Shown one piece after another: positions 10,312-63,907 of a DNA stretch of 64,000 bases. Below the pieces are notes generated by a model, which saw nothing but the letters and a program-made list of their open reading frames with translations, was not told the origin of the DNA and ran no database searches. Position numbers and translations under genes: made by a program. The DNA comes from Bacillota bacterium (lineage in GTDB: Bacteria > Bacillota_I > Bacilli_A > RF39 > UBA660), in contig SVAP01000007.1 of NCBI GenBank assembly GCA_015059335.1, positions 1,752 to 65,751 on the forward strand, given 5' to 3'. The first letter of the stretch is position 1. Every line of letters begins with the position of its first letter.

Positions 10312-12477
10312 ATGAAAGAGTATTTTAAAAGATTATACAATAAAACAGCAGATAGTTTTTATAAACTTGTTAAAAAAAATTTAAAAAATAATGCAAAGCA
10401 ATTTATAGTTACAGCAAATCCTGAAACATTTATGAAAGCAACGCAAGATGAAGAGCTTAATAAAATGTTAATGGATGAAAATACTACTATTGTTCCAGAT
10501 GGGATAGGAATAGTTAAAGCTGCTAGAATTTTAGATTATGATATTAAAGAAAGAATACCGGGAATAGATATTGCAAATAAACTATTAGAATATGGTAACG
10601 AATTAAATAAAAGTATATACATGTTCGGGGCACAAGAAGAAGTTATTGTATCTTTAAAAGAAGTATTAACTAAAAATTATCCTAATTTAAAAATTGTTGG
10701 TGCACAAAATGGTTATGAAAAAGATCGTGATAAGATTTTTAAAGATATTATAAAAAAAGAACCGGATATTGTTTTAGTTGCATTAGGTATACCAGAACAA
10801 GAAAAACTTATATATAAATATTTAGATAAATTTCAAAAAGGAATATTCGTTGGTGTAGGTGGATCATTTGATGTAATAAGTGGTCATAAAAAAAGGGCAC
10901 CTAAAATTTTTCGAAAATTAAACTTAGAATGGTTATACAGAATATTAAAAGAGCCTAAAAGAATTAAAAGATTTTATGATAGTAATGTAAAGTTTTTATT
11001 TAGAGTTAGGAAATTAAAAAAAAAAGAGAACAAAGTAACTTTTTCTGATTATTTAACAAAATTTTTCTTTGTTTCCTATTTTATATTTTCAATATATTGG
11101 TTAATTATAGTCTTTAATCATAACAAATCTAGGTTTGGTGTATATTTTATAATATTAGCATTTTTATTTGCATTAATATTTTATCTTTTTAAAAAATATA
11201 AATTAAAAATTAACACAAAAATAATTGTTATTGCTTTAATTATATTATCTATACTATTTAGATTGCCATTGATATTTTTAGATTATGCAGATCCTACTAG
11301 TGATTATGCAACATTTTATTATAATGCAGTATATATTGCGACTGGAACAGGATCATTTAGTTCTAAATACATATCAGCATTTCCATATTTATATGGTTAT
11401 ATATTTGTTTTAGGACAATTTATGAAAATATTTGGCAGTTCATATAGTAGTGTAATTATTTTAAATATATTATTAGATTTATTGGGTGCATCATTCATAT
11501 ATTTATTTACTAAAAAAATTAATAAGAAAGCAGCTGTTTATTCATTATTAATTTGGCTATTTAATCCTTTTAATATATACTTTTCTATTATATGTTCTCC
11601 TATCATTATAGTTAATACCTTCTTTGCATTAGTATTATATATATCATCATTATTATTTTCTAATTTGGATAACAGAAAACTTGTTATTATATATAGTTTA
11701 TTATTAGGAATTAGTTTATCTATTGCCAATGTTTTTCGACCAATAATGATTATTTTTGTTATTGCAATATTTATATATTTAACGTACCTTATTTTCGAAG
11801 AAAATAAAATTAAAACATCAAATTTAATAATTGGGTTTTTACTAGTATTTTGTACATATCAAATTGGAAACCAAGTTTACTATAAAATAATATCTAACGT
11901 AACTTGCTATGAAATAAATAAAAGCTTATCAGGGTGGACAATTTTTGTTGGCTCAAATACAGAAACGAGTGGTACATGGAGTGAATTGAATTCTGATACT
12001 TATGACAAATATTACTATAGCTCTGATTATACGCCAGAAAAGTTTAGCGATAAATTACAAAAGTTGGGTATAGAAAGATATAAAAATAATGGAATTATAA
12101 ATAATACAAAATTATTTATAGAAAAAAGTAAAGTTTTAGCTGCTAAAACGAATGAATACAATTATATTTCTTTTGTTGATACAAATATTACAAATAATGT
12201 TTTTTTGGATAAATTTGTTCAAGCATTTACAAGTATATATTGGTATTTTGTTGTGATATTTAATTTTATTTTTTCAATTATTATATTCAAAATAGAAGAT
12301 TATAAAAAAATGATTGCATATTGTCTGTTAGTTGTTGGATTGTGTGCTTCAACATTAATCGTAGAAGTAAGTCCTAGATATTTTTATCCAATATTTGCTC
12401 CGCTAACAATAGTATTAGCACTATCTATATATAAAATCAGTAATTTTTTTAGAAAAGGTGAAAAATATAATGATTAA
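10312..12477 (+). CDS. tagA: Fusion: TagA/WecG-family N-acetylmannosaminyltransferase domain plus C-terminal GT-C (ArnT/PMT-like) membrane glycosyltransferase
   Basis: FIVTANPETFM...PDGIGIVKAAR...PEQEKLI...GVGGSFDV are WecG/TagA blocks. These are followed by about 480 aa of polytopic sequence with a first-loop SDYA acidic motif and a C-terminal VEVSPRY. ATG 10312 was chosen over 10264 because of the terminator at 10238-10259 and the GGTAGGG RBS. Confidence 0.75.
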   Translation: MKEYFKRLYNKTADSFYKLVKKNLKNNAKQFIVTANPETFMKATQDEELNKMLMDENTTIVPDGIGIVKAARILDYDIKERIPGIDIANKLLEYGNELNKSIYMFGAQEEVIVSLKEVLTKNYPNLKIVGAQNGYEKDRDKIFKDIIKKEPDIVLVALGIPEQEKLIYKYLDKFQKGIFVGVGGSFDVISGHKKRAPKIFRKLNLEWLYRILKEPKRIKRFYDSNVKFLFRVRKLKKKENKVTFSDYLTKFFFVSYFIFSIYWLIIVFNHNKSRFGVYFIILAFLFALIFYLFKKYKLKINTKIIVIALIILSILFRLPLIFLDYADPTSDYATFYYNAVYIATGTGSFSSKYISAFPYLYGYIFVLGQFMKIFGSSYSSVIILNILLDLLGASFIYLFTKKINKKAAVYSLLIWLFNPFNIYFSIICSPIIIVNTFFALVLYISSLLFSNLDNRKLVIIYSLLLGISLSIANVFRPIMIIFVIAIFIYLTYLIFEENKIKTSNLIIGFLLVFCTYQIGNQVYYKIISNVTCYEINKSLSGWTIFVGSNTETSGTWSELNSDTYDKYYYSSDYTPEKFSDKLQKLGIERYKNNGIINNTKLFIEKSKVLAAKTNEYNYISFVDTNITNNVFLDKFVQAFTSIYWYFVVIFNFIFSIIIFKIEDYKKMIAYCLLVVGLCASTLIVEVSPRYFYPIFAPLTIVLALSIYKISNFFRKGEKYND

Positions 12478-26698: not shown

Positions 26699-27703
26699 TT
26701 ACTCAAAGTAATCTATTTTCATTTTGTTTCTAATAATTTCCATTGTCGCAATTGCTTTTTCTCTTGCTTTTTTTGTTCCTTCTATTAAAATTTTATCCAC
26801 AATTTCAGGATGTTCTTCATAATATTTTCTTTTTTCTTGCATTGGTTTTAGAAAATTAACCATGTTATCTATTAATTCTTTTTTACAAGATACACAACCT
26901 CTTGTACCATTTTCACACTCATCATGTATTGTATTAAGATTATTATCACTAACTAATTTATGGTAGTAATAAACCATGCATATATTAGGATTAGCAGGGT
27001 CATCTTTTTTTATTTTATCAGGATCAGTAACTGCCCCCATAACTTTTTTTCTAATTTCTTCAAAAGTATCATTTAAATTAATTGCGTTTCCTAAACTTTT
27101 ACCCATTTTTTCATTACCATCTAATCCTTTTAATCTTGTAATATTACTTAATAATGGCTCTGGTTCAGTAAAAGTTTCTCCATATATACTATTAAATTTT
27201 CTAACAATTTCTCTAGTTTGTTCAATAAGAGGCAATTGATCTTCACCAACTGGAATAACTTCTCCACCAAATAAGGTAATATCGGCAGCTTGACTCACTG
27301 GATATCCCAAAAATCCATATGTAACACTTTCTCCAGTATTACCAAATAATTCTTTCTTTTGTTTAATTTCAGTTTTTATAGTAGGATTCCTTTGTAATCT
27401 TGATACAGTTACTAAATTTGAAAAGTAAATAGTAAGTTCTGCAATTTCTGGAATCATCGATTGGATAAATATAGTAGATTTTGATGGATCAATTCCTGCA
27501 GATAACAAATCTATTACTAATTCTCTTACATTTTTTCTAACTTTATCAGGATTATCAAAATTATCAGTAAGAGCTTGTACATCAGCTATTTCAATAAAAG
27601 TATTATATTTATCTTGTAATTCTACCCAGTTTTTAACTGCACCATAGTAATGACCTAAATGTAAATTACCAGTTGGTCTTATCCCAGTTAAAATTGTTTT
27701 CAT
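26699..27703 (-). CDS. trpS: Tryptophan--tRNA ligase
   Basis: TGIRPTGNLHLGHY (HIGH) and KMGKS (KMSKS). ATG 27703 follows AGGAAGGA; the track ORF opens at 27733. Confidence 0.95.
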   Translation of the reverse strand: MKTILTGIRPTGNLHLGHYYGAVKNWVELQDKYNTFIEIADVQALTDNFDNPDKVRKNVRELVIDLLSAGIDPSKSTIFIQSMIPEIAELTIYFSNLVTVSRLQRNPTIKTEIKQKKELFGNTGESVTYGFLGYPVSQAADITLFGGEVIPVGEDQLPLIEQTREIVRKFNSIYGETFTEPEPLLSNITRLKGLDGNEKMGKSLGNAINLNDTFEEIRKKVMGAVTDPDKIKKDDPANPNICMVYYYHKLVSDNNLNTIHDECENGTRGCVSCKKELIDNMVNFLKPMQEKRKYYEEHPEIVDKILIEGTKKAREKAIATMEIIRNKMKIDYFE

Positions 27704-27768
27704 AAAAATCACATCCTTCCTAAATTTTATCATAAATTTTTAGCGGTGTAAACTGTGAATAAAAAGTA

Positions 27769-27796
27769 TTGTTCTATAATTAAAATATGGTATAAT
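27769..27796 (+). promoter_or_regulatory. Candidate sigmaA promoter of the prepilin operon
   Basis: TTGTTC (27769-27774), 16-nt spacer, TGgTATAAT extended -10 (TATAAT 27791-27796). Confidence 0.45.
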
Positions 27797-27832
27797 AATA
27801 TTATAAAATAGGATGATATCGGAGGCATTATT

Positions 27833-29800
27833 ATGAAAAATAAGAAAGGGTTTACATTAGTCGAATTATTAGCAACAATCGCAATAATGTTATTACTAGT
27901 AACTATCGCTGTACCAGCTATTACAAATTTAGTTAATAGAAATAGCAAAAAAGTTAATCAGGCACAAGAAGAAGAATTTATTTCTCTTGCAAAAATATAT
28001 ATGTCATCAAATTCTATAGAACTTGGTAGTGATGATGAATACTTATTATCACTCCAAGATATGTTGGATATTGATTTAATAAGTAGTATTCCAACACTTA
28101 ATAATGTAACATTTGATTATAATGTAGATGGTATTAGAATATATAAGAATAATGGTAAAGTCGCATATGAATTTGTTAAAAACTATTCATGTGATACCAC
28201 AAAATATCCAACTGGATGTTCAATATTTAATGCACCATCAAAAGAAGTTGTATATGATGATTTAACAATACCATCAACAGGATCTGGTGGAGTTAACTAT
28301 GATTATTTATATAATGGTAATGTAAAAGATGAAAATGTTAGTATTCCTAATATAGAAATTATGTCATCAGAGTTTGAAGGAGAAGGATTTATAATTCCTA
28401 TTGTATATGATGAATCTTGTGATGAGGGATATGGTTGTTGGAGAAAAGCGGATACAACAAAGGTGTGGTATGATTATTCAAAAGGAATATGGGCAAATGT
28501 GGCCTTAGTTAATCCTGAAAGAAGTTATTGTACATATTCTTCTGAAGCAACTTGTTATGACAATCTAACTAAACATACTGGATATTGGTATAAAAACGCA
28601 AAACCTGGTATTGAAATTTCAATGGATGATATATCTGGAATGTATGTATGGATTCCTAGATTTGATTATAAAATTGAAGGAGACTTTGGTATTGGTGGTA
28701 CATCAGTTACAAATCCTGGAAAAATTTCAATTCAATTTAACAGTGATTTAAATACTGAACAAACTGGAGATGCTAAAACTAGTTGGTATACTCATCCTGC
28801 TTTTAAAAAGGAAAAAATTGTTGATACAGCTTCTACATTAGAAAGTATAAGTGGATTTTGGGTTGCTAAATTTGAAGGGGCTAGTTATGATGATAGCGTA
28901 CCATTTCGATATGAATCACTTAATTTTGATATTACTGGTAATGACTATACTGTACATCTTTTTAATGAAAAAGTTTATTACTTTAATTCTCATAGTTCAC
29001 ACGAAATATATAATTTTGAATGGGCTGCAATTGCGTATCTATCGCAATCAAATTATGGTATAGCAAATAATAATAGTTGTCAGGATGGAATGTTAAAAAC
29101 AAAAGTAACTGTTGGTGAGTCAGTCACAGACACTTCCACTACAATAACAGGAATTATTGGAAATTATACATATGATGGGAAACACATAAGAGATTATACG
29201 ATTTCAGGAAATAAAATAAGTAATCTACAAACCGCAATAGATGAGCTACCTCCCTTTACTAATAGGTATAAAGGATACTGTGGAAGTACCACTGGAACAA
29301 TATATGGTGTATATGATATGGCTGGTGGTTATGATGAATATGTTGGTATTTTTATGAAAAATGAAAATGATCAAGTAACTAGTGCAGCTTACTACAAAGG
29401 CTCTGTGAAATCTCCTAAGTCTGATCCAACAGCTCCAGGAACATGTGATGGAAAAGATTTAAGTGCTGAATTTTCGTTTTCAGAATTTCAAACATATACA
29501 CAATATCATTTGTATGATTATGTGTATTGTGAAGATTGTAGTAATGAGTATCCTTGGGTTTCTAATTATTATGATTATCCAGTAGATTATCCTTATAAAA
29601 AAGGGGATGCTACTAAAGAAACAGAAAATTGGTTTAATAGTTTCCATGTTTTTATTCATTGTCAAGATGCCAATATGGAAAGACAAAATAACGGTGAATC
29701 TCATGCAATAATGAAACGTGGTAGAAATAACATTTTTGATTTTGAAGCATCAGATGGTTATAGTGAAGTTGCTACAACAACAAGGAGAGCGTATTACTAA
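27833..29800 (+). CDS. Giant (655 aa) type IV pilin-like protein with a large Cys-rich globular C-terminal region
   Basis: MKNKKG|FTLVELLATIAIMLLLVTIAVPAI is a class III (prepilin) signal with Glu5. RBS GGAGG. The rest is hydrophilic with paired Cys residues. Confidence 0.8.
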   Translation: MKNKKGFTLVELLATIAIMLLLVTIAVPAITNLVNRNSKKVNQAQEEEFISLAKIYMSSNSIELGSDDEYLLSLQDMLDIDLISSIPTLNNVTFDYNVDGIRIYKNNGKVAYEFVKNYSCDTTKYPTGCSIFNAPSKEVVYDDLTIPSTGSGGVNYDYLYNGNVKDENVSIPNIEIMSSEFEGEGFIIPIVYDESCDEGYGCWRKADTTKVWYDYSKGIWANVALVNPERSYCTYSSEATCYDNLTKHTGYWYKNAKPGIEISMDDISGMYVWIPRFDYKIEGDFGIGGTSVTNPGKISIQFNSDLNTEQTGDAKTSWYTHPAFKKEKIVDTASTLESISGFWVAKFEGASYDDSVPFRYESLNFDITGNDYTVHLFNEKVYYFNSHSSHEIYNFEWAAIAYLSQSNYGIANNNSCQDGMLKTKVTVGESVTDTSTTITGIIGNYTYDGKHIRDYTISGNKISNLQTAIDELPPFTNRYKGYCGSTTGTIYGVYDMAGGYDEYVGIFMKNENDQVTSAAYYKGSVKSPKSDPTAPGTCDGKDLSAEFSFSEFQTYTQYHLYDYVYCEDCSNEYPWVSNYYDYPVDYPYKKGDATKETENWFNSFHVFIHCQDANMERQNNGESHAIMKRGRNNIFDFEASDGYSEVATTTRRAYY

Positions 29801-29801
29801 T

Positions 29802-30359
29802 ATGAATAAAAGTGGTTTTAGTATTGTTGAAATAATTATAGTAACTGTAATAGTATTTATTTCTTCTGTTGGTTTATATGTAACTGTTACACAAGTTTTA
29901 GCGCATTCAGAACAAATATCAAAATATGATTCAGCTAAAAATGTTTACAATTTAAATACAATTAAAGTGTTTTTATATAAAAATTATGATGTTAATAAAT
30001 TATGTAATTATGTATATGATGAAGAAAAAGGAGAATATAAAACTTTTCCAATATTAAATATAACTTCTGGTAAAGAAATATATAATTTAGATATAGATGC
30101 TGAAAAGTTAAAGATGTTTAAAAGTATTACAAATGATATGAATATTAAAACATTGATTTTTGCAGAATATTCTAATATACTTAGCGGGACTGATAGTACC
30201 ACTACTAAAATTAAAAGTGATGCTGGTTTATATAAATACATTAATTATATTTTAGATAAGAATCCTAAAAATAGTGATGATAAGCTCTTATATTTACTAA
30301 TAGCAGAATTTAATGACAATACATATGCATCTATAAATATGTATAAGGTAAGAAGGTGA
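29802..30359 (+). CDS. Pilin-like (minor pilin/pseudopilin) protein
   Basis: MNKSG|FSIVEIIIVTVIVFISS prepilin motif. ATG 29802 lies 2 nt after the upstream stop, with RBS AAGGAGAG. The track ORF 29718 start lies inside the upstream gene. Confidence 0.7.
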   Translation: MNKSGFSIVEIIIVTVIVFISSVGLYVTVTQVLAHSEQISKYDSAKNVYNLNTIKVFLYKNYDVNKLCNYVYDEEKGEYKTFPILNITSGKEIYNLDIDAEKLKMFKSITNDMNIKTLIFAEYSNILSGTDSTTTKIKSDAGLYKYINYILDKNPKNSDDKLLYLLIAEFNDNTYASINMYKVRR

Positions 30360-30889
30360 CTGCTTTGAAAAATAAGGGATTTAGTCTTATAGAATTGATT
30401 GTTGGAATAGCAATTATTTCAGTAATTTCACTTTCACTATTAACAACAATTATACATATTAATAATTTAATTAGTAAAAAATCAAAAGAACACTACATTA
30501 AAAGTGAAACCGCACTGATATATAAAGAAATAGCTACATTATTTTCAACTAGAAATATAGAATCAATTACTAATGATGGCTCTAAATATAAGATTGTTTT
30601 TTCTAAACCTACAAGTTATAATTCAGAAAGTATAATAAAAACAATGTATGAAATGTGTTTAGATAATAATAATTTTTATATCGGTGATAAAGAATTTAAA
30701 TCAAATAAATATTTTAAATACACTGGATTAGAAATTGAAAAAAATATTTCTAGTACTGATAGTAACTATTATTACATTACATTTACTTTAATATATAAAT
30801 TCCAAGGAAAAGAAGAAATGATTAGAATACATTATTTAAATGATCCAGTTGATTCATTTGTTAATATTAGGGAGAATAAATATGGATAA
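30356..30889 (+). CDS. Pilin-like (minor pilin/pseudopilin) protein
   Basis: ...KNKG|FSLIELIVGIAIISVISL prepilin motif. GTG 30356 overlaps the upstream TGA. TTG 30365 (giving MKNKGF...) is an equally plausible start. Confidence 0.75.
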   Translation: MTALKNKGFSLIELIVGIAIISVISLSLLTTIIHINNLISKKSKEHYIKSETALIYKEIATLFSTRNIESITNDGSKYKIVFSKPTSYNSESIIKTMYEMCLDNNNFYIGDKEFKSNKYFKYTGLEIEKNISSTDSNYYYITFTLIYKFQGKEEMIRIHYLNDPVDSFVNIRENKYG

Positions 30890-31073
30890 TAAAGGGTTTG
30901 TTGGTACAATATTAATATATAGTTTATTTGTCTTTTTTGTCGCACTAATATTATTTCTAATTAGAATTTCTACAAATTCTGTTTCTTCTAAAGTATATGG
31001 TAGTGATGTAATAAAGGAACATGTGAATAAAATTGTTCCATATGATGTGTGTCTTGAAAAAGAAGAATGTTAA
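30882..31073 (+). CDS. Small pilin-like protein lacking Glu5 (ComGG/PilX-like position)
   Basis: MDNKG|FVGTILIYSLFVFFVALILFLI. ATG 30882 follows GGGAGA and overlaps the upstream stop. Confidence 0.5.
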   Translation: MDNKGFVGTILIYSLFVFFVALILFLIRISTNSVSSKVYGSDVIKEHVNKIVPYDVCLEKEEC

Positions 31074-31075
31074 TT

Positions 31076-31103
31076 AGAGGTATATAGACATATACTTCTT
31101 TTT
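31076..31103 (+). terminator. Rho-independent terminator of the prepilin operon
   Basis: 10-bp stem AGAGGTATAT/ATATACTTCT (one G-U pair), 4-nt loop, TTTT. Confidence 0.65.
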
Positions 31104-31143
31104 ATTTGTTTTAAAATAATATATAATATATATGGTGGTAAAA

Positions 31144-31761
31144 ATGGATTTATTAAAATATGAAAAAGAATTATATGAAAAAAATATAGAATATATAGCA
31201 GGGGTTGATGAAGTGGGTCGTGGTCCACTAGTAGGACCAGTTGTAGCTGCTTGTGTAGTATTACCTAAAAATTATAATTTAGAAGGGCTTACTGATTCTA
31301 AAAAATTATCAGAAAAGAAAAGAGATAAATATTATGATATTATAATGAAAGATGCATTGGGTGTTGGTGTTGGAATAATTAGTCCGGAAATTATTGATGA
31401 AGTAAATATTTATGAAGCAAGTAAATTAGCTATGTTAGAAGCAATAAAAAATGTTAATTGTAAGATTGAACATGTTTTAATTGATGCGATGCCATTAGAT
31501 ATGGAAATTCCTTCTACATCTATTATTCATGGAGATGCACTATCTTTAAGTATTGCAGCTGCAAGTGTTATTGCAAAAGTTACAAGAGATAAGATGATGT
31601 ATGAATTAGATAAAGAGTATCCGGAATACGGATTTTCAAAGCATAAAGGATATCCTACTAAATTACATCTTGAAAATATTAAAAAATATGGTATATTAGA
31701 TAACTACAGGAAAAGTTATAAACCAGTTAAAGAAATATTAGAAGGTGTTAAGAGTGAATAA
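31144..31761 (+). CDS. rnhB: Ribonuclease HII
   Basis: IAGVDEVGRGPLVGPVVAA and GDALSLSIAAASVIAKVTRD blocks. ATG 31144 follows GGTGG. Confidence 0.9.
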   Translation: MDLLKYEKELYEKNIEYIAGVDEVGRGPLVGPVVAACVVLPKNYNLEGLTDSKKLSEKKRDKYYDIIMKDALGVGVGIISPEIIDEVNIYEASKLAMLEAIKNVNCKIEHVLIDAMPLDMEIPSTSIIHGDALSLSIAAASVIAKVTRDKMMYELDKEYPEYGFSKHKGYPTKLHLENIKKYGILDNYRKSYKPVKEILEGVKSE

Positions 31762-39428: not shown

Positions 39429-41033
39429 CTATTTAGATATATATTTTTGATTACTAGCATTAATTGATTTTTTATTAGTATACTCAATTAAATTTGAGTT
39501 TAATAATGGTTTTATAATATTTACTGAAATATAACTTCTTGACTTAATTCCCAAATATTCTCTAATTTCTTTTGAGCTTCTAGGTTCTCTACAATATTCA
39601 ATAATTTTTTGTCTATGATATTTGATTTGTTTATATGTTGAAATTTTGCTGACTTGTTCACTGACTTGTTCACCGACTTGTTCACCGACTTGTTCACTGA
39701 CTTGTTCACTGACTTGTTCACCGACTTGTTCACCGACTTGTTCACCAACTTGTTCACTAACATGTGAACAACTACTATTATTATTTATGTTATTTTTAAA
39801 AATCACTTTAAAACAATTACGTTCTTCAATAAACTCTGGTTCTGGCAAACCCAATTTTTTCAATTCTCGTTTCATTGTAGGAATGCCGGTATGTCTATTT
39901 TCTACTAAAGTATTACTTTCTTCTAATATTTTCAGGATAGTCTTATTTCTAATTTGTAACATCTTAGTTGTTCCAAGCTCTTCAATCTTATTTGTCCCAT
40001 ATAAACATCCAGGACTCAATATTTCAATTCTATCATCATACATATAAACTTGTATATATGCACCTTCAGTTTGGACACTATAGTCTCTATGTATTAATGC
40101 ATTAGCGATTGCTTCTCTTAGTGCTTCCATAGGATATTCATTAACGTCTTGTCTTATTCCCGTTTTTGGATTGATTATAACTCTTGTTTTCATATTTTTT
40201 CTTATAAATGATAATGTTCCATGCAACATTTGTTCAATAGTACCTTCAATTCTTTTATTATCATCGAAACGTTGACCTAATATTCCTCTATCGCCTAAAT
40301 TTTTGCCTGGTATGACACAACATGCAATAAATAATTGAGGGAAATATTCTTGAGGATATTCTCCAAACAACATCATTCCAGCTAAAGTAGGGTAAATTTT
40401 TTTACCACATACATCTATTATTCCTGACATTTTCAATATTTTTTTAAAATCATTTTTCGAAAAATTTGGTTTGTTTTCTTTGATCATCTTTACATATTGT
40501 TTTAAATCTTCTTCTTTCAAGTCAGTTATTGATGCTCTTTTAATTACTCTAAGATCTTCAGATATATTATCATTATAACTTTGTAATGAATATAACTCAT
40601 AATCAGTCATTACATCGTCTCGATCACCAACTCTTATATATGAACCTTTAAACATTCCTTTTGGTTTATAATAACACGGTTTCTTATTTTGGGGTATCTC
40701 ATTAATTTTAACAGCTAATATTTTCTTATATTCAAATTCAACTGTTAAAAAATATGGATGTATTTTTGGTTCCATTGAATCATTACACAATGCACTAATT
40801 TGTTTTTGCAAATCATATATATCATAGACACCTTCTGTTTTAAAATTATCATTTTCATTTAATCCGAAAATAATAATCCCGCCATATCTATTTGAGAAAC
40901 TCGAAATAGTATCATAACATTTTTTAGGAAAACCATTTTTTGCGCTTTTAGCTTCTATTGTATTAGTTTCTGTATGAAACATTCTTAATTTATTAATTGA
41001 ATTAATTACTTCTTCTTTAGTAATATAAAACAC
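39429..41033 (-). CDS. AlbA_2 (Schlafen-like) plus HATPase_c_4 'RecG-like' putative DNA-binding regulator with a C-terminal wHTH
   Basis: N-terminus TNTIEAKSAKNGFP...FSNRYGGIIIFGLNE (AlbA_2). Middle REAIANALIHRDY (HATPase_c_4). Repeat linker, then IIEYCREPRSSKEIREYLG (wHTH). The start is ambiguous because GTG 41033 lies within its own SD. Confidence 0.75.
   Translation of the reverse strand: MFYITKEEVINSINKLRMFHTETNTIEAKSAKNGFPKKCYDTISSFSNRYGGIIIFGLNENDNFKTEGVYDIYDLQKQISALCNDSMEPKIHPYFLTVEFEYKKILAVKINEIPQNKKPCYYKPKGMFKGSYIRVGDRDDVMTDYELYSLQSYNDNISEDLRVIKRASITDLKEEDLKQYVKMIKENKPNFSKNDFKKILKMSGIIDVCGKKIYPTLAGMMLFGEYPQEYFPQLFIACCVIPGKNLGDRGILGQRFDDNKRIEGTIEQMLHGTLSFIRKNMKTRVIINPKTGIRQDVNEYPMEALREAIANALIHRDYSVQTEGAYIQVYMYDDRIEILSPGCLYGTNKIEELGTTKMLQIRNKTILKILEESNTLVENRHTGIPTMKRELKKLGLPEPEFIEERNCFKVIFKNNINNNSSCSHVSEQVGEQVGEQVGEQVSEQVSEQVGEQVGEQVSEQVSKISTYKQIKYHRQKIIEYCREPRSSKEIREYLGIKSRSYISVNIIKPLLNSNLIEYTNKKSINASNQKYISK
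39651..39758 (-). repeat. 9 tandem copies of a 12-bp unit (GACTTGTTCAC[C/T] on the + strand), in frame
   Basis: Read directly: 39651-39758 is nine head-to-tail 12-mers differing only at the last base (first base too in the last unit). They encode SEQV/GEQV x9. Confidence 0.95.
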
Positions 41034-44923: not shown

Positions 44924-45400
44924 ATGAAAAAAATGAATAGAAAAGGTTTTACATTAATCGAATTATTAGCAGTTATCGTAGTTTTAGCTATTATCTTAGT
45001 TATTACAGTGCCAACAATTTTAAATACTCTTGGAGATACTAGAAAAGATGCTTTTGAAGCGGGTGCAAATTCTGTGGCAGATTGGTTTGAAAAAAATTAT
45101 TCACTTGCACAATTAGATTCAACAAAATCAAATTCAGTATATAACACATGGGCTGGTCTTGATACTACAGCAACAACTGACGATGTAACTGTAGATACTG
45201 AAACAAACCTTACTGCAAATGTTATTGTAGCTGCAGGTTTAAATGCAACTGACGTTAATGCTACATCATCAACTGTTAAAATCAAAAAAAATGGTAGAGC
45301 ATGTGTTAAACTTGTTGCTGGTACAGGTACAGGTGCTAAGTTTAGTGGTCAAGGTACAGTTTATAGTTCTGGATGTGAAGCAGCAGATAAATCTAATTAA
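44924..45400 (+). CDS. Type IV pilin-like protein, candidate major subunit (158 aa)
   Basis: MKKMNRKG|FTLIELLAVIVVLAIILVITVPTIL. C-terminal Cys pair (RACVKL...SSGCEA) resembles a D-region disulfide. RBS AGGAGG. Locally higher G+C and Thr/Ala-rich composition. Confidence 0.85.
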   Translation: MKKMNRKGFTLIELLAVIVVLAIILVITVPTILNTLGDTRKDAFEAGANSVADWFEKNYSLAQLDSTKSNSVYNTWAGLDTTATTDDVTVDTETNLTANVIVAAGLNATDVNATSSTVKIKKNGRACVKLVAGTGTGAKFSGQGTVYSSGCEAADKSN

Positions 45401-46500: not shown

Positions 46501-47430
46501 ATGGATAAATATTACAATAATATTAAAGTATTAATAGAAAACAATATAATTGAGGTTAAGAAACAAGAGATAAGTGTGAATAATCATACTTTGATGACTT
46601 ATTTTAATGTAGGTAAATTATTAGTTGAAGCTCAAGGTGGAGAAACGCGTGCGAAGTATGGAAATGGTTTAATTAAAAGGTATTCAAATAAATTAACATT
46701 AGAGTATGGTAAGGGTTATGATTATACGAATTTGAGTAGAATGAGGGATTTATATTTATGTTTTCAAAAAGTTGGCACAGTGTGCCAACAATTGAGTTGG
46801 AGTCATTATAGACGTATTTTGCCAATTAAAAATGATTCAAAAAGAAATTATTACATTAATTTAGTAATAGAAAATAGACTAAGTGTTAGACAACTTATTA
46901 ATGAAATAAAAAATAATTCATATGAAAGACTAATTGGTGACAAAGATAATATTGAACTTAAGTATATAAATGATAATAGTAAACAAATGACAATACTAGA
47001 TATGATAAAAGACCCAATATTAATAAGTATTGGTAATACTAAAGTAGATAGATTAACAGAGAAAGCGTTGAAATGTTACATATTAGATAATATTGAGAAG
47101 ATATTATTAGAATTAGGAGTAGGATTTAGTTTTGTAGGTAGTGAGAAAAAGATAAAAGTAGGAGATAGCTATAGATATATTGATTTAGTGTTTTTTAATT
47201 ACAAATTAAATTGTTTTGTATTGATAGAATTAAAAATAAACAAGTTAGATATAAAAGATATAGGACAATTAGAATTTTATGTTAGATATTATAATGATGA
47301 AATTAAAGAAGATTTTCACAATACTACAATAGGGATAATAGTTTGTAAGAAAAATGATAAAAGTATATCAAAATATGGGGATTCTAATATATATGTATCT
47401 AGTTATGAGTTAGTAGGTGACAGTAAGTAA
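46501..47430 (+). CDS. yhcG: YhcG-like DUF1016 protein (PDDEXK nuclease fold)
   Basis: QQLSWSHYRRILPIK and IDLVFFNYKLNCFVLIELK (D...ELK nuclease core). Confidence 0.8.
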   Translation: MDKYYNNIKVLIENNIIEVKKQEISVNNHTLMTYFNVGKLLVEAQGGETRAKYGNGLIKRYSNKLTLEYGKGYDYTNLSRMRDLYLCFQKVGTVCQQLSWSHYRRILPIKNDSKRNYYINLVIENRLSVRQLINEIKNNSYERLIGDKDNIELKYINDNSKQMTILDMIKDPILISIGNTKVDRLTEKALKCYILDNIEKILLELGVGFSFVGSEKKIKVGDSYRYIDLVFFNYKLNCFVLIELKINKLDIKDIGQLEFYVRYYNDEIKEDFHNTTIGIIVCKKNDKSISKYGDSNIYVSSYELVGDSK

Positions 47431-48158
47431 TGAATTATTATAATGAGATAAAACACGAATTAATAAATAATGAAGTAAATAGAAAAGTAAAAAGTTATTC
47501 AATAAACAGAAGCGATTTAAACACATATTATATCGTTGGAAAAATGTTAAGTGAAGCAGGTAAGCATTATGGCGAGGGTATTATAAGAGAATATTCTGAA
47601 AAATTAACTTTAGAAGTTGGTAAAGGATATGGGATATCTAATTTAAAAAGAATGCGACAATTTTATTATATGATTGAAAAAGGTGCCCCTTTAGGGCACC
47701 AATTGTCTTGGAGCCATTATAGGGAATTATTACCTATAAAAGATATTAATGAAATTAAATATTATATACATCTTTGTGAAAAATTAAACTTAACAAGAGA
47801 TGAATTAAAACTCAAAATAAAAAGTAAAGAGTATGAAAGATTACCAGAAGTTACAAAAGATAAATTAATTAATAATGATAAATCTAGTGTAATTGATTAT
47901 GTGAAAAATCCTATTATTATTAAAAATAACAATTATAAAATTGTATCTGAAAAGCTATTACAAAAACTAATATTAGAAGATATACCAATATTTTTAAAAG
48001 AACTTGGATTTGGTTTTACTTTTATTGATAATGAATACAAAATAATAAGTACGTTATAAAATATTGTTCAGATGAAAGGATAATTGCTAGAGAATATGTA
48101 GTTATATAATAATTCAAATATTTATGTATCTAGTTATGAATTAATTGATAATAATTGA
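47430..48158 (+). pseudogene. Decayed second YhcG/DUF1016 copy (N-terminal 209 aa intact, nuclease core deleted, C-terminal scraps)
   Basis: HQLSWSHYRELLPIK is retained and the ORF stops at 48059 before any D...E-x-K core. Scraps follow: YCSDERIIAREYVVI* (about 48062-48109) and NSNIYVSSYELIDNN* (48111-48158). Confidence 0.65.
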
Positions 48159-60344: not shown

Positions 60345-62165
60345 ATGATAACAGAAGAACAAATCGAAGAGATTAAGAAAAAAAGTAATATAGTTGAAGT
60401 AATATCATCTTATATACCACTTAATAAAAAAGGACGTAATTACTTTGGACTATGTCCTTTTCATGATGACCATTCACCATCAATGAGTGTTTCACCAGAA
60501 AAAGGTATTTATACGTGTTTTGTATGTGGTGCGACTGGTAATGCAATTAGTTTTGTAATGAACTATGAAAATTTAAATTATGTTGAAGCATTGAAGGTTT
60601 TAGGAGATAAATGTGGAGTCAATTTAAATGTAAATAATTATAGAAAGAAAGATAATTATGATGAGTTTTATAATATATATGAACTTACTAATAAATTTTA
60701 TCAAAACAATTTGAATACGGTAAATGGACATGATGCTAGGGAATATCTAAAAAATAGAGGTATAACTGATAACATAATAAGAGAATTCAATGTTGGACTT
60801 GCTTTAGGATTTGATAAAAGTGTTACAAAGTTATTAATTCAAAAAGGATATAAAGAAAAAGACTTAGTTGATATTGGTATTAGCAATAAGACGGATTATG
60901 GTTATCAAGATTTATTTATAAATCGTATTATGTTTCCATTATGGAATTTAGACGGTAAAATAGTAGGCTACAGTGGTAGAATTTATAATCAGGAAGATAC
61001 TGCTAAATATATAAATACAAAAGAAACAGTAATATTTAAAAAGGGACTAAATCTTTATAATTATCATAGAGCTAAAAACGAAGTAAGAATGAGTGGTTCT
61101 GTAATAATTATGGAAGGATTTATGGATGTTATTAGAGCTTATTCTATTGATATTAAAAATGCTGTGGCTACAATGGGAACTGCTTTGACAGTTGAAAATG
61201 CCAATCTTATAAAAAAGATGAGTAACAATGTTATATTATGCTTTGATGGTGATAAAGCTGGTAAGAAAGCAACGTATGCTTGTGGTAATGAACTTGTTAA
61301 AATAGGGGTTAATCCAAAAGTAGTTATATTAGAATCAAATTTAGATCCCGATGAATATATAATTAAATTCGGGGCAAAAAAATTTAAAGAAAAAATAAAT
61401 AACTGTATTAGTTTTTTAGATTTTAAATTAAATTATTTAAAAGAGGGTAAAAATTTAAATAATAATGAGGATTTGACTGAATATATTAACGGAGTAATAA
61501 AAGAAGTAAAAACTATAGATGATGAAATTTTGAGAGAACTAACATTAAAGAAAATTGCAAATGAAATTAACATTAGTGTTGAAACTTTAATGGGTAAATT
61601 ATGGAAAGAAATAGAAAATGATAATAAAGAGATAGAACAGTCTATTGATGATGGTTTTGTAGATATGGTACCCCCTAAAGAAGTACCTTATATACCAAAA
61701 GAAGTTAAAAAACATAGAATTTCTACACCATCTACTACAGACAAATATACTAAGGCGGAACGTAAAGTTTTATATTATATGTTGCACGATAAGGAATTAA
61801 CTTATAAGTATGAGAAGGTATTTCCATATCTTCCTACGAAAATTTATCGATTTTTAGCATCAGAAATAATGTATTTTGTCAAAAAATATGATACAATTAG
61901 CATTAGTGATTTTTTAAATTATATGAAAGACAAACAAGAACTAGTAGATTTAGTGGGTGAAATCTTAAATTTTGATTATAATAAAGATTACACGGAAGAA
62001 GAAATAACGGATTATTTCAAGGTTCTTAGAGAATATAATTTTAAAAGCGAAGTAGATAGATTAAGTGTTGAATTAAAACATGAGACAGATTTAGAAAAAC
62101 AAATTGAACTAGCTAACAAAATCATGAACTTAAAAAAGGGAGTGGAAGATAATGGAAGCAATTAA
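60345..62165 (+). CDS. dnaG: DNA primase
   Basis: Zn ribbon [13 protein letters not shown]...CFVCG and [12 protein letters not shown]...DGDKAG. Confidence 0.95.
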
Positions 62166-63228
62166 AACCTTAGAAGAAAGAATGAAGGATTTACTTGAAA
62201 TAGGTAAAGATGGAAAAATTACTTATGAACAACTTGCAGAAGTTTTAAAAGGTCTTGATATGGATAGTGACTCACTAGATCTTGTTTATAATTTACTTAC
62301 TGATAATCATATTGAAGTTGTTAGTGCGACTGAAGACGATACAGAAGAAGATGGTAGTCCATTAATTTTAGATGATGATGCATTAACAAAAGATATTAAT
62401 ATTAATGACCCAGTTAGAATGTATTTAAAAGAAATCGGTAAAATTTCATTATTATCGCTAGATGAAGAGCTTGAATTATCACATAGAATTGCTGATGGCG
62501 ATGAAGATGCAAAAAGATTGCTTGCTGAATCAAACCTACGTCTAGTTGTAAGTATTGCAAAACGTTATGTTGGACGTGGAATGTTATTTCTTGACTTAAT
62601 TCAAGAAGGTAACATTGGACTTATGAAAGCCGTTGAAAAGTTTGATTCATCAAAAGGATATAAATTTAGTACATATGCAACATGGTGGATTAGACAAGCT
62701 ATTACAAGAGCAATAGCAGATCAAGCTAGAACTATACGTGTTCCTGTTCATATGGTTGAAACAATTAATAGAATGACAAGACATCAAAGACAATTAACTC
62801 TTGAGTTAAATCGCGAACCAACTGAAGAAGAGATTGCATCACGTATGAAAATTCCTGTAGAAAAAGTTAGGGAAATTATTAAAATAGCGCAAGATCCAGT
62901 TTCATTAGATACTCCAATAGGTGAAGAAGAAGATTCTCATTTAGGTGATTTTATTCCTGATGAAAGAAGTATGAGTCCTGAAGAATTTGCAACAAATGAA
63001 ATTTTAAAAGATCAAATAAGTACTGTATTAATGACTTTAACTGATAGAGAAGAACAAGTGTTAAAATTAAGATTTGGACTTATTGATGGTACATGTAGAA
63101 CTCTAGAAGAAGTTGGGCAAATATTTGGTGTTACAAGAGAAAGAATTAGACAAATTGAAGCTAAAGCATTAAGAAAATTAAGACATCCATCACGTTCTAA
63201 AAAATTAAAGGATTTCATGGGTGACTAA
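62152..63228 (+). CDS. sigA: Primary RNA polymerase sigma factor SigA/RpoD
   Basis: [70 protein letters not shown]. Confidence 0.95.
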
Positions 63229-63907
63229 AAAAATAAATATCTCCAATAGATTAAAAACTATTGGAGATTTCGTTATAGATAATTCAAAAGTGGTGGATGT
63301 TGGATGCGATCATGCTCTATTAAGTATATATCTTTATCAAAATAGAAATAATATAAATGTGATTTCGACAGATATAAATAATGGACCTTTAAACGAGGCT
63401 AAAAATAATATCAAAAATTATAAGTTAGAAAATAAAATTGAGACTAGACTTTCTGATGGCCTAAAAAACATAGAAAAGAATGAATTTGATACTATAATTA
63501 TTGCTGGTATGGGTGGCAATACAATAGTAGATATATTAGGTTTTGATATTGATAAAACAATTAGTGCGAATAGGATAATTATTCAAGCAAACAATAATGT
63601 TGACAAGGTAAGAAAATTTTTAGTTAATAATAATTTTAAAATAACTGATGAAAAATTAGTAAAAGAAAATAATATTATTTCAATAGTGATTTTATTTACT
63701 AAAAATACTAAAAATATAAAATACAGTAGAGATGAAATTTTATTTGGACCAATTTTATTGAAAGAAAATAATATATTATTTAAAGAATTATTAAGTAATA
63801 CTTTGAAAAAGTATTCGATAATTTTAAATAAAATTCCTAGAAAATATATTATAAAAAGATATAAAATGAATAAATATATTTCAAAAATAAAAAGTTATAT
63901 TTCATAA
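63221..63907 (+). CDS. trmK: tRNA (adenine22-N1)-methyltransferase TrmK
   Basis: RLKTIGDFV...[15 protein letters not shown] and IIAGMGG blocks. GTG start overlaps the sigA stop. Confidence 0.75.

Follow-up and report, generated by a model that had tools for sequence, protein, structure and literature searches.

We identified four co-directional genes, here named P1 to P4, at positions 27833-31073 of a 64,000-nucleotide (nt) stretch of contig SVAP01000007.1 from a Bacillota bacterium; this whole stretch is referred to below as the window. The genes lie between the housekeeping genes trpS and rnhB. We consider it fairly probable that they make up a single operon whose products, a self-contained group of type IV minor pilins, would serve as the tip or priming complex of a pilus. 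The first and largest product, P1, is predicted from its structural model to be a modular type IV pilin in the sense of Raynaud et al. 2021 (PMC8179133), with a pilin module, a linker and a non-pilus fold.

Class III signals in four adjacent genes

All four genes are encoded on the forward strand. P1 (27833..29800) is an open reading frame (ORF) for a modular prepilin of 655 amino acids (aa), recorded at NCBI as MBE6153725.1, ‘type II secretion system protein’. It is followed by P2 (29802..30359), an ORF with an ATG start for a 185-aa pilin-like protein annotated as hypothetical (E7166_05840), by P3 (30365..30889), a 174-aa prepilin that would reach 177 aa from an alternative GTG start at 30356, and by P4 (30882..31073), an ORF with an ATG start for a 63-aa mini-pilin. 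Further NCBI records for the operon proteins are MBE6153727.1 (prepilin-type protein) and MBE6153728.1 (hypothetical). For P3, TTG 30365 is a more probable start than GTG 30356, because a GAAGGTG Shine-Dalgarno sequence is found about 9 nt upstream of the TTG and gene callers made this choice on identical contigs, and 5 nt would therefore separate P2 from P3. The four tightly packed ORFs of the preliminary description are as described, except that the overlap then given for P2 and P3 (30356/30359) is not favoured.

The N-termini, read directly from the sequence, are MKNKKG/FTLVELL for P1, MNKSG/FSIVEII for P2, MKNKG/FSLIELI for P3 and MDNKG/FVGTILI for P4 (the slash marks the Gly-Phe junction). 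Each consists of a leader of 5-6 residues rich in Lys and Asn, Gly followed by Phe, and about 20 hydrophobic residues. Glu5 is present in P1, P2 and P3, is invariant in their orthologues, and is absent from P4; these features, and the restriction of Glu5 to the first three proteins, had been noted earlier and are confirmed here. Curated hidden Markov models (HMMs) of the pilin N-terminus, with cut-offs of 21.2 bits for Pfam N_methyl (PF07963) and 16.3 bits for TIGR02532, recognize P1 (29.7 and 25.2 bits) and P3 (29.2 and 27.1 bits). P2 is sub-threshold on PF07963 (17.9 bits) and has no match to TIGR02532.

A relaxed class III pattern, applied to all 226 ORFs of 35 aa or more in the window, picked out only P1-P4, a pilin gene at 44924 and one false positive. 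Because the scan selects almost only these genes, the clustering of four pilins is not attributable to chance. The AlphaFold2 models of P1 (helix at aa 9-59, strands at aa 69-131) and of P2 have the lollipop fold of pilins. The set does not correspond to ComGC-GG, in agreement with what had been proposed for this locus, as P1-P4 fall well short of the cut-off of each NCBIfam ComG equivalog model (best scores 19.7-26.8 bits, against cut-offs of 49-80).

P1 combines a pilin module with a predicted lectin-like module

The AlphaFold2 model of P1 (93 sequences; predicted local distance difference test score, pLDDT, 74.5; predicted template modelling score, pTM, 0.73) has three parts, all given here by their forward-strand coordinates. 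The pilin module (aa 1-131; 27833..28225) comprises the leader MKNKKG, Phe+1, Glu5, the alpha-1 helix of aa 9-59 and a small beta-sheet, with pLDDT of 78-92. A flexible linker (aa 135-163; 28235..28321), with pLDDT below 50 and poorly conserved in the family alignment, leads to a C-type-lectin / FGE-sulfatase-like module (aa ~165-655; 28325..29797), the predicted ligand-binding cargo, which was recognized by profile and Foldseek searches. The earlier suggestion that a pilin here carries a very large globular cargo is thus borne out by the model.

Taken alone, the C-terminal module of P1 matches no Pfam family (0 at E up to 10) and no NCBIfam model. A profile of 14 P1 homologues matches one solved structure, PDB 5vf4 (TaqVP; E 5.9e-6), and six of the 14 homologues weakly match PF03781 (FGE-sulfatase; best E 2.2e-4). 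In Foldseek searches with the P1 model, 5vf4 is again the single significant match in the PDB (prob 0.99), and the single significant match among viral structures is a phage ‘sulfatase-modifying factor enzyme-like domain’ (SUMF1-like) protein (prob 1.00). TaqVP is the variable protein of a diversity-generating retroelement (DGR) and has a C-type-lectin fold (PMC6328139). Based on the TaqVP, PF03781 and phage SUMF1-like matches, we predict that the P1 cargo is a divergent, insertion-rich C-type-lectin / FGE-type module that binds a ligand. On all 18 contigs that carry it, from several metagenomes, P1 has an identical protein sequence, which is what a stable, functional gene would show. The guanine-plus-cytosine (GC) content of 28001-30000, which lies over P1, is ~0.30 compared with ~0.24 in the remaining window, and amino-acid composition or a different origin could explain this.

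At E <= 0.001, P1 has more than 1000 protein matches, of which the best is only 35% identical, and 87 of the 120 best matches (about 73%) have a class III signal with Glu5. The family occupies at least 573 loci in species-representative genomes, nearly all of them gut or rumen metagenome-assembled genomes (MAGs) with labels such as Bacilli or Tenericutes; one genome often holds several copies. Other members have a plain transmembrane anchor in place of the pilin N-terminus, or dockerins (P0018, P0027).

Some members of the P1 family are DGR targets. A reverse transcriptase (RT) gene lies directly downstream of a P1-family member in eight of 80 related genome loci, accompanied by bAvd in seven of the eight. 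Pairs of variable region and template repeat (VR/TR) were verified in six loci (L017, L033, L035, L053, L054 and L064), with mismatches almost only at template adenines; two more, L007 and L032, contain DGR genes without a verified repeat pair, and in L007 no VR/TR pair was located despite adjoining MutS_I-like, bAvd and RT genes. The DGR locus of L053 (9521-13494) has as its target a 548-aa prepilin-fused P1-family protein. The last 116 nt of its gene (11049-11164) pair with a template repeat at 11416-11531, all 16 of the 16 mismatches falling at template adenines, and a MutS_I-like gene, bAvd and the RT are found downstream of the repeat. The verified pairs indicate that this scaffold is diversified by DGRs, in pilin-fused members as well.

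P2, P3 and P4 accompany P1 in other genomes

At least three further genomes have the same four-gene layout, set within different chromosomal neighbourhoods. The lengths of P1/P2/P3/P4 are 655/185/177/63 aa in the window (with P3 counted from the GTG start), 639/169/154/60 aa in L001, 626/183/179/62 aa in L089 and 605/179/168/64 aa in L090. Orthologues of P2, P3 and P4 lie directly downstream of the closest relatives of P1. Recurrence of one layout in different neighbourhoods indicates that P1-P4 travel as a unit.

Orthologues of P2 were found in L001, L089, L090 and L004. Its AlphaFold2 model (pLDDT 85) consists of an alpha-1 helix (aa 3-41) and an alpha/beta head. The P2 family is large, with 1588 clusters recovered by a full HMMER search, 604 of them at E <= 1e-10, compared with only 13 relatives from a word-indexed search. 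No curated model covers any member of the family, and the only matches are weak ones to ComGD, ComGE and ComGF via the N-terminal helix. We predict that P2 and P3 are a minor-pilin pair belonging to this uncharacterized pilin family of about 1600 clusters.

P4 has a degenerate class III signal and shares the conserved C-terminal motif N[KH]IVPYDV.L with its orthologues. Glu5 is absent from P4 and from every orthologue (three to four compared), and is missing likewise from the K subunit of the HIJK minor pilins and from PilA of Streptococcus sanguinis (PMC9934059). The P4 profile also matches the N-termini of larger subunits lacking Glu5, including a 482-aa protein with a LamG module in L092 and a 476-aa protein in L004. 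The latter is part of an enlarged pilin gene cluster of a related MAG (L004:5864-12338). This cluster starts with a 138-aa pilin, continues with the 476-aa subunit, and goes on with a 590-aa pilin matching P1 (96 bits), a 612-aa CLec-family pilin, and P2-like and P3-like genes.

Related genes adjoin pilus machinery

In three relatives, genes like those of the cassette are encoded beside type IV pilus machinery. The gene order in L092 is sigA, trmK, yqfQ, a T2SSF platform (PilC-like), an A24 prepilin peptidase, a T2SSE ATPase, a P2-like gene (68.6 bits to the P2 profile) and a P3-like gene (43.2 bits). The P3-like gene is followed by that for the 482-aa subunit without Glu5, which has two Laminin-G domains and an N-terminus scoring 22.5 bits on the P4 profile. 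Two further relatives, L096 and L099, whose sigA is ~74% identical to that of the window, have the same order from dnaG, sigA, trmK and yqfQ through the machinery, and then P2-like and P3-like genes. The ATPase of these relatives scores 476 bits on the GspE model, 463 bits on PilB and 269 bits on ComGA (cut-off 300), and the platform scores 276 bits on GspF, 252 bits on PilC and 140 bits on ComGB (cut-off 240), all of them below the equivalog cut-offs. In L003, a lone ATPase gene is divergent from that of a 650-aa CLec-family pilin, and a small pilin is encoded alone elsewhere.

An assembly-ATPase profile search returned at least 8000 matches at E <= 1e-50. Two ATPase candidates, P0403 (MBE6144257.1, with its own dnaG-sigA-trmK) and P0374, were rejected, as they belong to other genomes.

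A solitary pilin as candidate shaft subunit

The window encodes one more prepilin, of 158 aa, at 44924..45400 on the forward strand (MBE6153746.1). It lies between rsmD and nfo, outside any pilus operon, and has two C-terminal cysteines. The protein scores 32.2 bits on N_methyl and 31.3 bits on TIGR02532, and its best equivalog match is ComGC, at 35 bits versus a cut-off of 75. Many related loci have small single-gene pilins of this kind within 10 kilobases (kb) of a CLec-family gene. We take the 44924 pilin as the candidate major subunit, which would form the shaft.

Alternatives to a pilus tip complex

Several results weigh against a tip complex. The P2 model has no Foldseek match in the PDB at E <= 0.001, including GspH, GspI, GspJ and GspK, and the P2 and P3 profiles match pilins in the PDB only via the N-terminal helix. 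P4 matches no pilin HMM in Pfam or NCBIfam; the curated models recognize the class III signals of P1 and P3, and the motif scan those of all four proteins. Many P1 paralogues use a plain transmembrane anchor, indicating that filament display is not obligatory for the cargo domain. A search for machinery genes, made by phmmer with seeds from related loci, ORF lists and Pfam scans, found no homologue of T2SSE, T2SSF or the A24 peptidase in the window or in the 10 kb beyond either end (84 kb), consistent with the preliminary description, which had reported no assembly ATPase, platform or peptidase in the window. In a comparison with L092, L096, L099 and L087, the source organism has a 145-aa gene and then gatCAB after dnaG-sigA-trmK (60345-63907), and the machinery block is not at the site used in the three relatives. 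Gene order suggests that in the source organism the pilus machine was either moved from the sigA-trmK site or lost there. If it was lost, or is not used, P1-P4 could be orphans, with P1 acting as a membrane-anchored surface lectin on its N-terminal helix, cleaved or not, P2-P4 as relics or membrane partners, and no filament being made. The empty site after sigA-trmK, the lack of machinery in the 84 kb and the simple anchors of the paralogues all favour this explanation. We nevertheless consider it improbable, though it is the likeliest of the four alternatives, which are taken here in descending order. Neither the four reading frames nor the solitary pilin is disrupted, P1 does not differ among its 18 contigs, and the four-gene set has been kept as a unit in at least four genomes with Gly-1, Phe+1 and Glu5 retained. 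In addition, ATPase and pilin genes are scattered singly in L003, so the absence of machinery from one site is weak evidence.

The remaining alternatives place the genes in other systems. P1-P4 could be the ComGD-GG equivalents of a Com (type IVd, T4dP) competence pseudopilus that includes the ComGC-like 44924 pilin and functions in DNA uptake, not in adhesion. In its favour are the monoderm host, a number of minor pilins equal to that in the Com tip complex (PMC12153270), the ComGE, ComGF and ComGC models as best NCBIfam matches of P1, P3 and the 44924 pilin, and weak ComGD, ComGE and ComGF matches among P2-family members. These ComG scores of 20-35 bits, against cut-offs of 49-80, come from the N-terminal helix only, however; sizes and gene order are unlike comGD-GG, no comGA or comGB is adjacent, the ATPase and platform of the relatives score higher on GspE/PilB and GspF/PilC than on ComGA/ComGB, and a 490-aa lectin-like cargo is without precedent in Com pili, making a Com system less probable again than a set of orphans. 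We regard as very unlikely that the proteins form a type II-secretion-like pseudopilus tip that pushes or presents secreted proteins instead of an adhesive pilus. The NCBI name of P1 and the top score of the GspE model on the relatives' ATPase point in this direction, but the GspE and GspF scores are under the equivalog cut-offs, the host is a monoderm, spore-forming Firmicute without an outer membrane to cross, and the P1 cargo has a ligand-binding fold. Finally, P1 could itself be a DGR variable protein whose binding site is hypermutated by an RT and a template repeat elsewhere in the genome, as the only solved relative of the cargo fold is a DGR variable protein and the family includes the RT-linked and adenine-diversified members described above. 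No repeat of the P1 3′ region was found anywhere in the window, and ORF lists and Pfam scans of the window and its flanks showed neither RT nor Avd. There is no strain variation of P1 in its 90% cluster, which contains only P1 and a 247-aa fragment, and in P1, as in its closest relatives, the C-terminal counterpart of the variable region has been shortened and has diverged. The lack of a template repeat in the window, of an RT in the window or flanks and of strain variation led us to reject P1 as a DGR target, and this last explanation, largely refuted, is the least likely of all.

We favour a minor-pilin tip module, as put forward in the preliminary description. The P2-like and P3-like genes beside machinery in three relatives and the Glu5-less P4 support that proposal, but its other part, in which the 44924 pilin is the major subunit, goes no further than a plausible candidate.

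Proposed mechanism

For processing, order of assembly, location at the tip, ligand and the existence of a machine in the source genome, we infer the following. P1-P4 would enter the membrane by means of the class III signal and the hydrophobic alpha-1 helix, and a prepilin peptidase would cut after Gly. P4, which lacks Glu5 and has little beyond the helix, would be placed first and cap the assembly, with P3 and P2 stacked below it. P1 would join through its small pilin module, leaving the linker of ~30 residues to hold the lectin-like module of ~490 residues out from the tip. A PilB/GspE-like ATPase and a PilC-like platform, encoded elsewhere, would then polymerize the major pilin, possibly the 44924 protein, underneath. 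At the tip, the lectin-like module may bind, with fixed specificity, a glycan or surface ligand of the gut or rumen habitat and so act as an adhesin.

Comparison with known systems

The closest precedent for P1-P4 is the PilA-PilB-PilC set of S. sanguinis (PMC8179133, PMC9934059). Both are minor-pilin operons of monoderm hosts with a predicted tip location and a predicted role in starting filament assembly, each includes a small subunit (PilA in S. sanguinis, P4 here) that lacks Glu5 and has a degenerate class III signal, and in both a small pilin module bears a bulky adhesive module via a short linker. However, the P1 cargo is a C-type-lectin / FGE-like module of ~490 aa rather than a vWA or concanavalin-like one, there are four subunits instead of three, the operon stands alone among housekeeping genes and not in a pil locus, and P2, P3 and P4 have no detectable sequence similarity to PilA, PilB and PilC.

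The cassette also resembles the HIJK core minor pilins (GspH/I/J/K, FimU-PilV/W/X and ComGD/E/F/G; PMC12153270, PMC9934059). As in HIJK, four pilin-like subunits are encoded together and one of them, the capping subunit in HIJK, lacks Glu5; in addition, the genes of the relatives adjoin an ATPase, a platform and a peptidase. In contrast to HIJK, the subunit without Glu5 is only 63 aa long and not the bulkiest, the bulky module is on a subunit that has Glu5, no curated model of the HIJK families reaches its threshold, and the P2 model has no significant structural match.

In its fold, the P1 cargo is like the C-type-lectin-fold variable proteins of DGRs (TaqVP, PDB 5vf4, PMC6328139; TvpA; Mtd), TaqVP being the only significant PDB match, and some members of the P1 family are true DGR targets. 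P1 differs from these proteins in being fused to a pilin, in having no RT, Avd or template repeat nearby and in showing no variation among strains; compared with TaqVP, its cargo has large insertions (~490 aa versus ~380 aa). The type V pilus adhesins of Bacteroides, which are diversified by DGRs (bioRxiv 10.1101/2024.11.15.621889), offer a parallel in gut bacteria, as they too place a C-type-lectin-fold adhesin on a pilus, with DGR hypermutation in sister genomes here. Those pili are of type V and belong to diderm Bacteroidota, whereas P1 is a type IV pilin of a Firmicute and the copy in the window is undiversified.

Modular pilins have been catalogued extensively, over 1,200 of them in 264 architectures, and PilB (vWA module) and PilC (lectin module) of S. 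sanguinis have been characterized (PMC8179133, PMC9934059). The earlier statement that large pilins with an extra domain are poorly characterized in Gram-positive bacteria was thus overstated, and the novelty claimed on that basis too strong, since modular pilins at the pilus tip were already known. One catalogued architecture, IPR012902 + IPR011871, has an extra domain listed without clear function, and resembles P1 in joining a pilin N-terminus to an extra domain (PMC8179133). A catalogue based on InterPro probably missed the P1 module, because Pfam does not recognize it. We take IPR011871 to be the Fibrobacter succinogenes major paralogous domain, presumably related to the lectin/FGE fold.

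Expression signals and neighbouring genes

The window has a GC content of ~24% and contains housekeeping and sporulation genes of ordinary Firmicute type. The former include nusA-infB-rbfA-truB, trpS, rnhB, miaA, polA, proS, dnaG and sigA, and spore markers in or near the window are the germination protease Gpr, a YlbD-type coat protein, Cse60 and SirA. Precomputed Pfam matches on identical contigs identify trpS (26699-27733, minus strand) and rnhB (31132-31761) on either side of the pilin genes, and so uphold the placement first given to them.

Each of P1-P4 is preceded by a Shine-Dalgarno sequence of its own; that of P1 is GGAGG (27821..27825, forward strand), 7 nt before the ATG. A candidate promoter (27769..27796, forward strand) combines a weak −35 element, TTGTTC (27769-27774), a 16-nt spacer and a perfect extended −10 element, TGgTATAAT (27788-27796). 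In a consensus scan, promoter-like sites in this AT-rich window were not more frequent than in shuffled sequences (38 versus 32 +/- 5), and with such sites at background level the P1 promoter is plausible only and undemonstrated. Downstream of P4, an intrinsic-terminator-like element (31076..31113, forward strand) consists of a 10-bp hairpin (31076-31099) and a U-run. RNA folding gives the hairpin a free energy of −10.6 kcal/mol (z = −3.0 relative to shuffles); a scanner that demands GC-rich stems had missed it. Of the promoter and terminator previously assigned to the unit, the terminator is thus supported and the promoter is no more than plausible. An Rfam scan of the whole window found no RNA family, and hence no known riboswitch upstream of the pilin genes.

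A 196-aa variant of P2 (…KVRRWLLWKIRDLVL; Joint Genome Institute (JGI) calls on L082 and L084) is an annotation artefact, because two TGA codons were read as Trp, as genetic code 4 would; the DNA is identical to that of the window, where the site is 30357-30359.

Elsewhere in the window, the minus strand of 39429-41033 encodes a Schlafen AlbA_2 / HATPase_c_4 protein in which (S/G)EQV tetrapeptides are repeated in a row. On otherwise near-identical contigs this protein has 534 or 518 aa, suggesting a polymorphism in repeat number. Two tandem DUF1016/YhcG PDDEXK-nuclease genes are found at 46501-48059; in the second (209 aa), no more than part of the nuclease domain is left, and this copy resembles a duplicate in decay. 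L085:4220-7447, which lies about 4-6 kb upstream of the window, encodes a 615-aa protein with SH3_3 and dockerin domains and a 456-aa cadherin-like protein. Together with the dockerins of the P1-family members P0018 and P0027, the dockerin near the window hints at a fibre-attached, cellulosome-type surface biology in the habitat.

Implications for uncultured gut and rumen Bacilli

Given that modular pilins and four-subunit tip complexes are established, the P1-P4 cassette is not a new kind of system. What is new is the large lectin/FGE-type cargo, invisible to Pfam in P1 and common to more than 1000 proteins, mostly of uncultured gut and rumen Bacilli; the uncharacterized P2/P3 pilin family, members of which adjoin the pilus machine in relatives; the portability of the four-gene set; and the presence in the cargo family of true DGR targets with pilin N-termini. 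For type IV pilins as DGR targets, the sole trace that we found in the papers searched is a GspG-type pilin domain among the rare targets of a DGR survey (PMC11661182).

We tentatively extend these observations to a wider proposal, which we hold to be possible but rather doubtful. Across a large clade of uncultured Bacilli from gut and rumen, type IV pili would carry interchangeable tip modules that are scattered over the chromosome and whose adhesive heads share one lectin-like scaffold. This scaffold would be hypermutated by DGRs in sister genomes, directly on prepilin-fused targets as in L053, and type IV pilus tip adhesins would be a main cellular DGR target in Firmicutes. P1-P4 would then be a version with frozen specificity and its own priming subunits, working in trans with a machine that has gone from its ancestral sigA-trmK locus. 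If confirmed, the system described here would give a handle on how uncultivated Firmicutes attach to fibres, hosts or partners, and would suggest natural display scaffolds that join a pilus to a mutable lectin fold.

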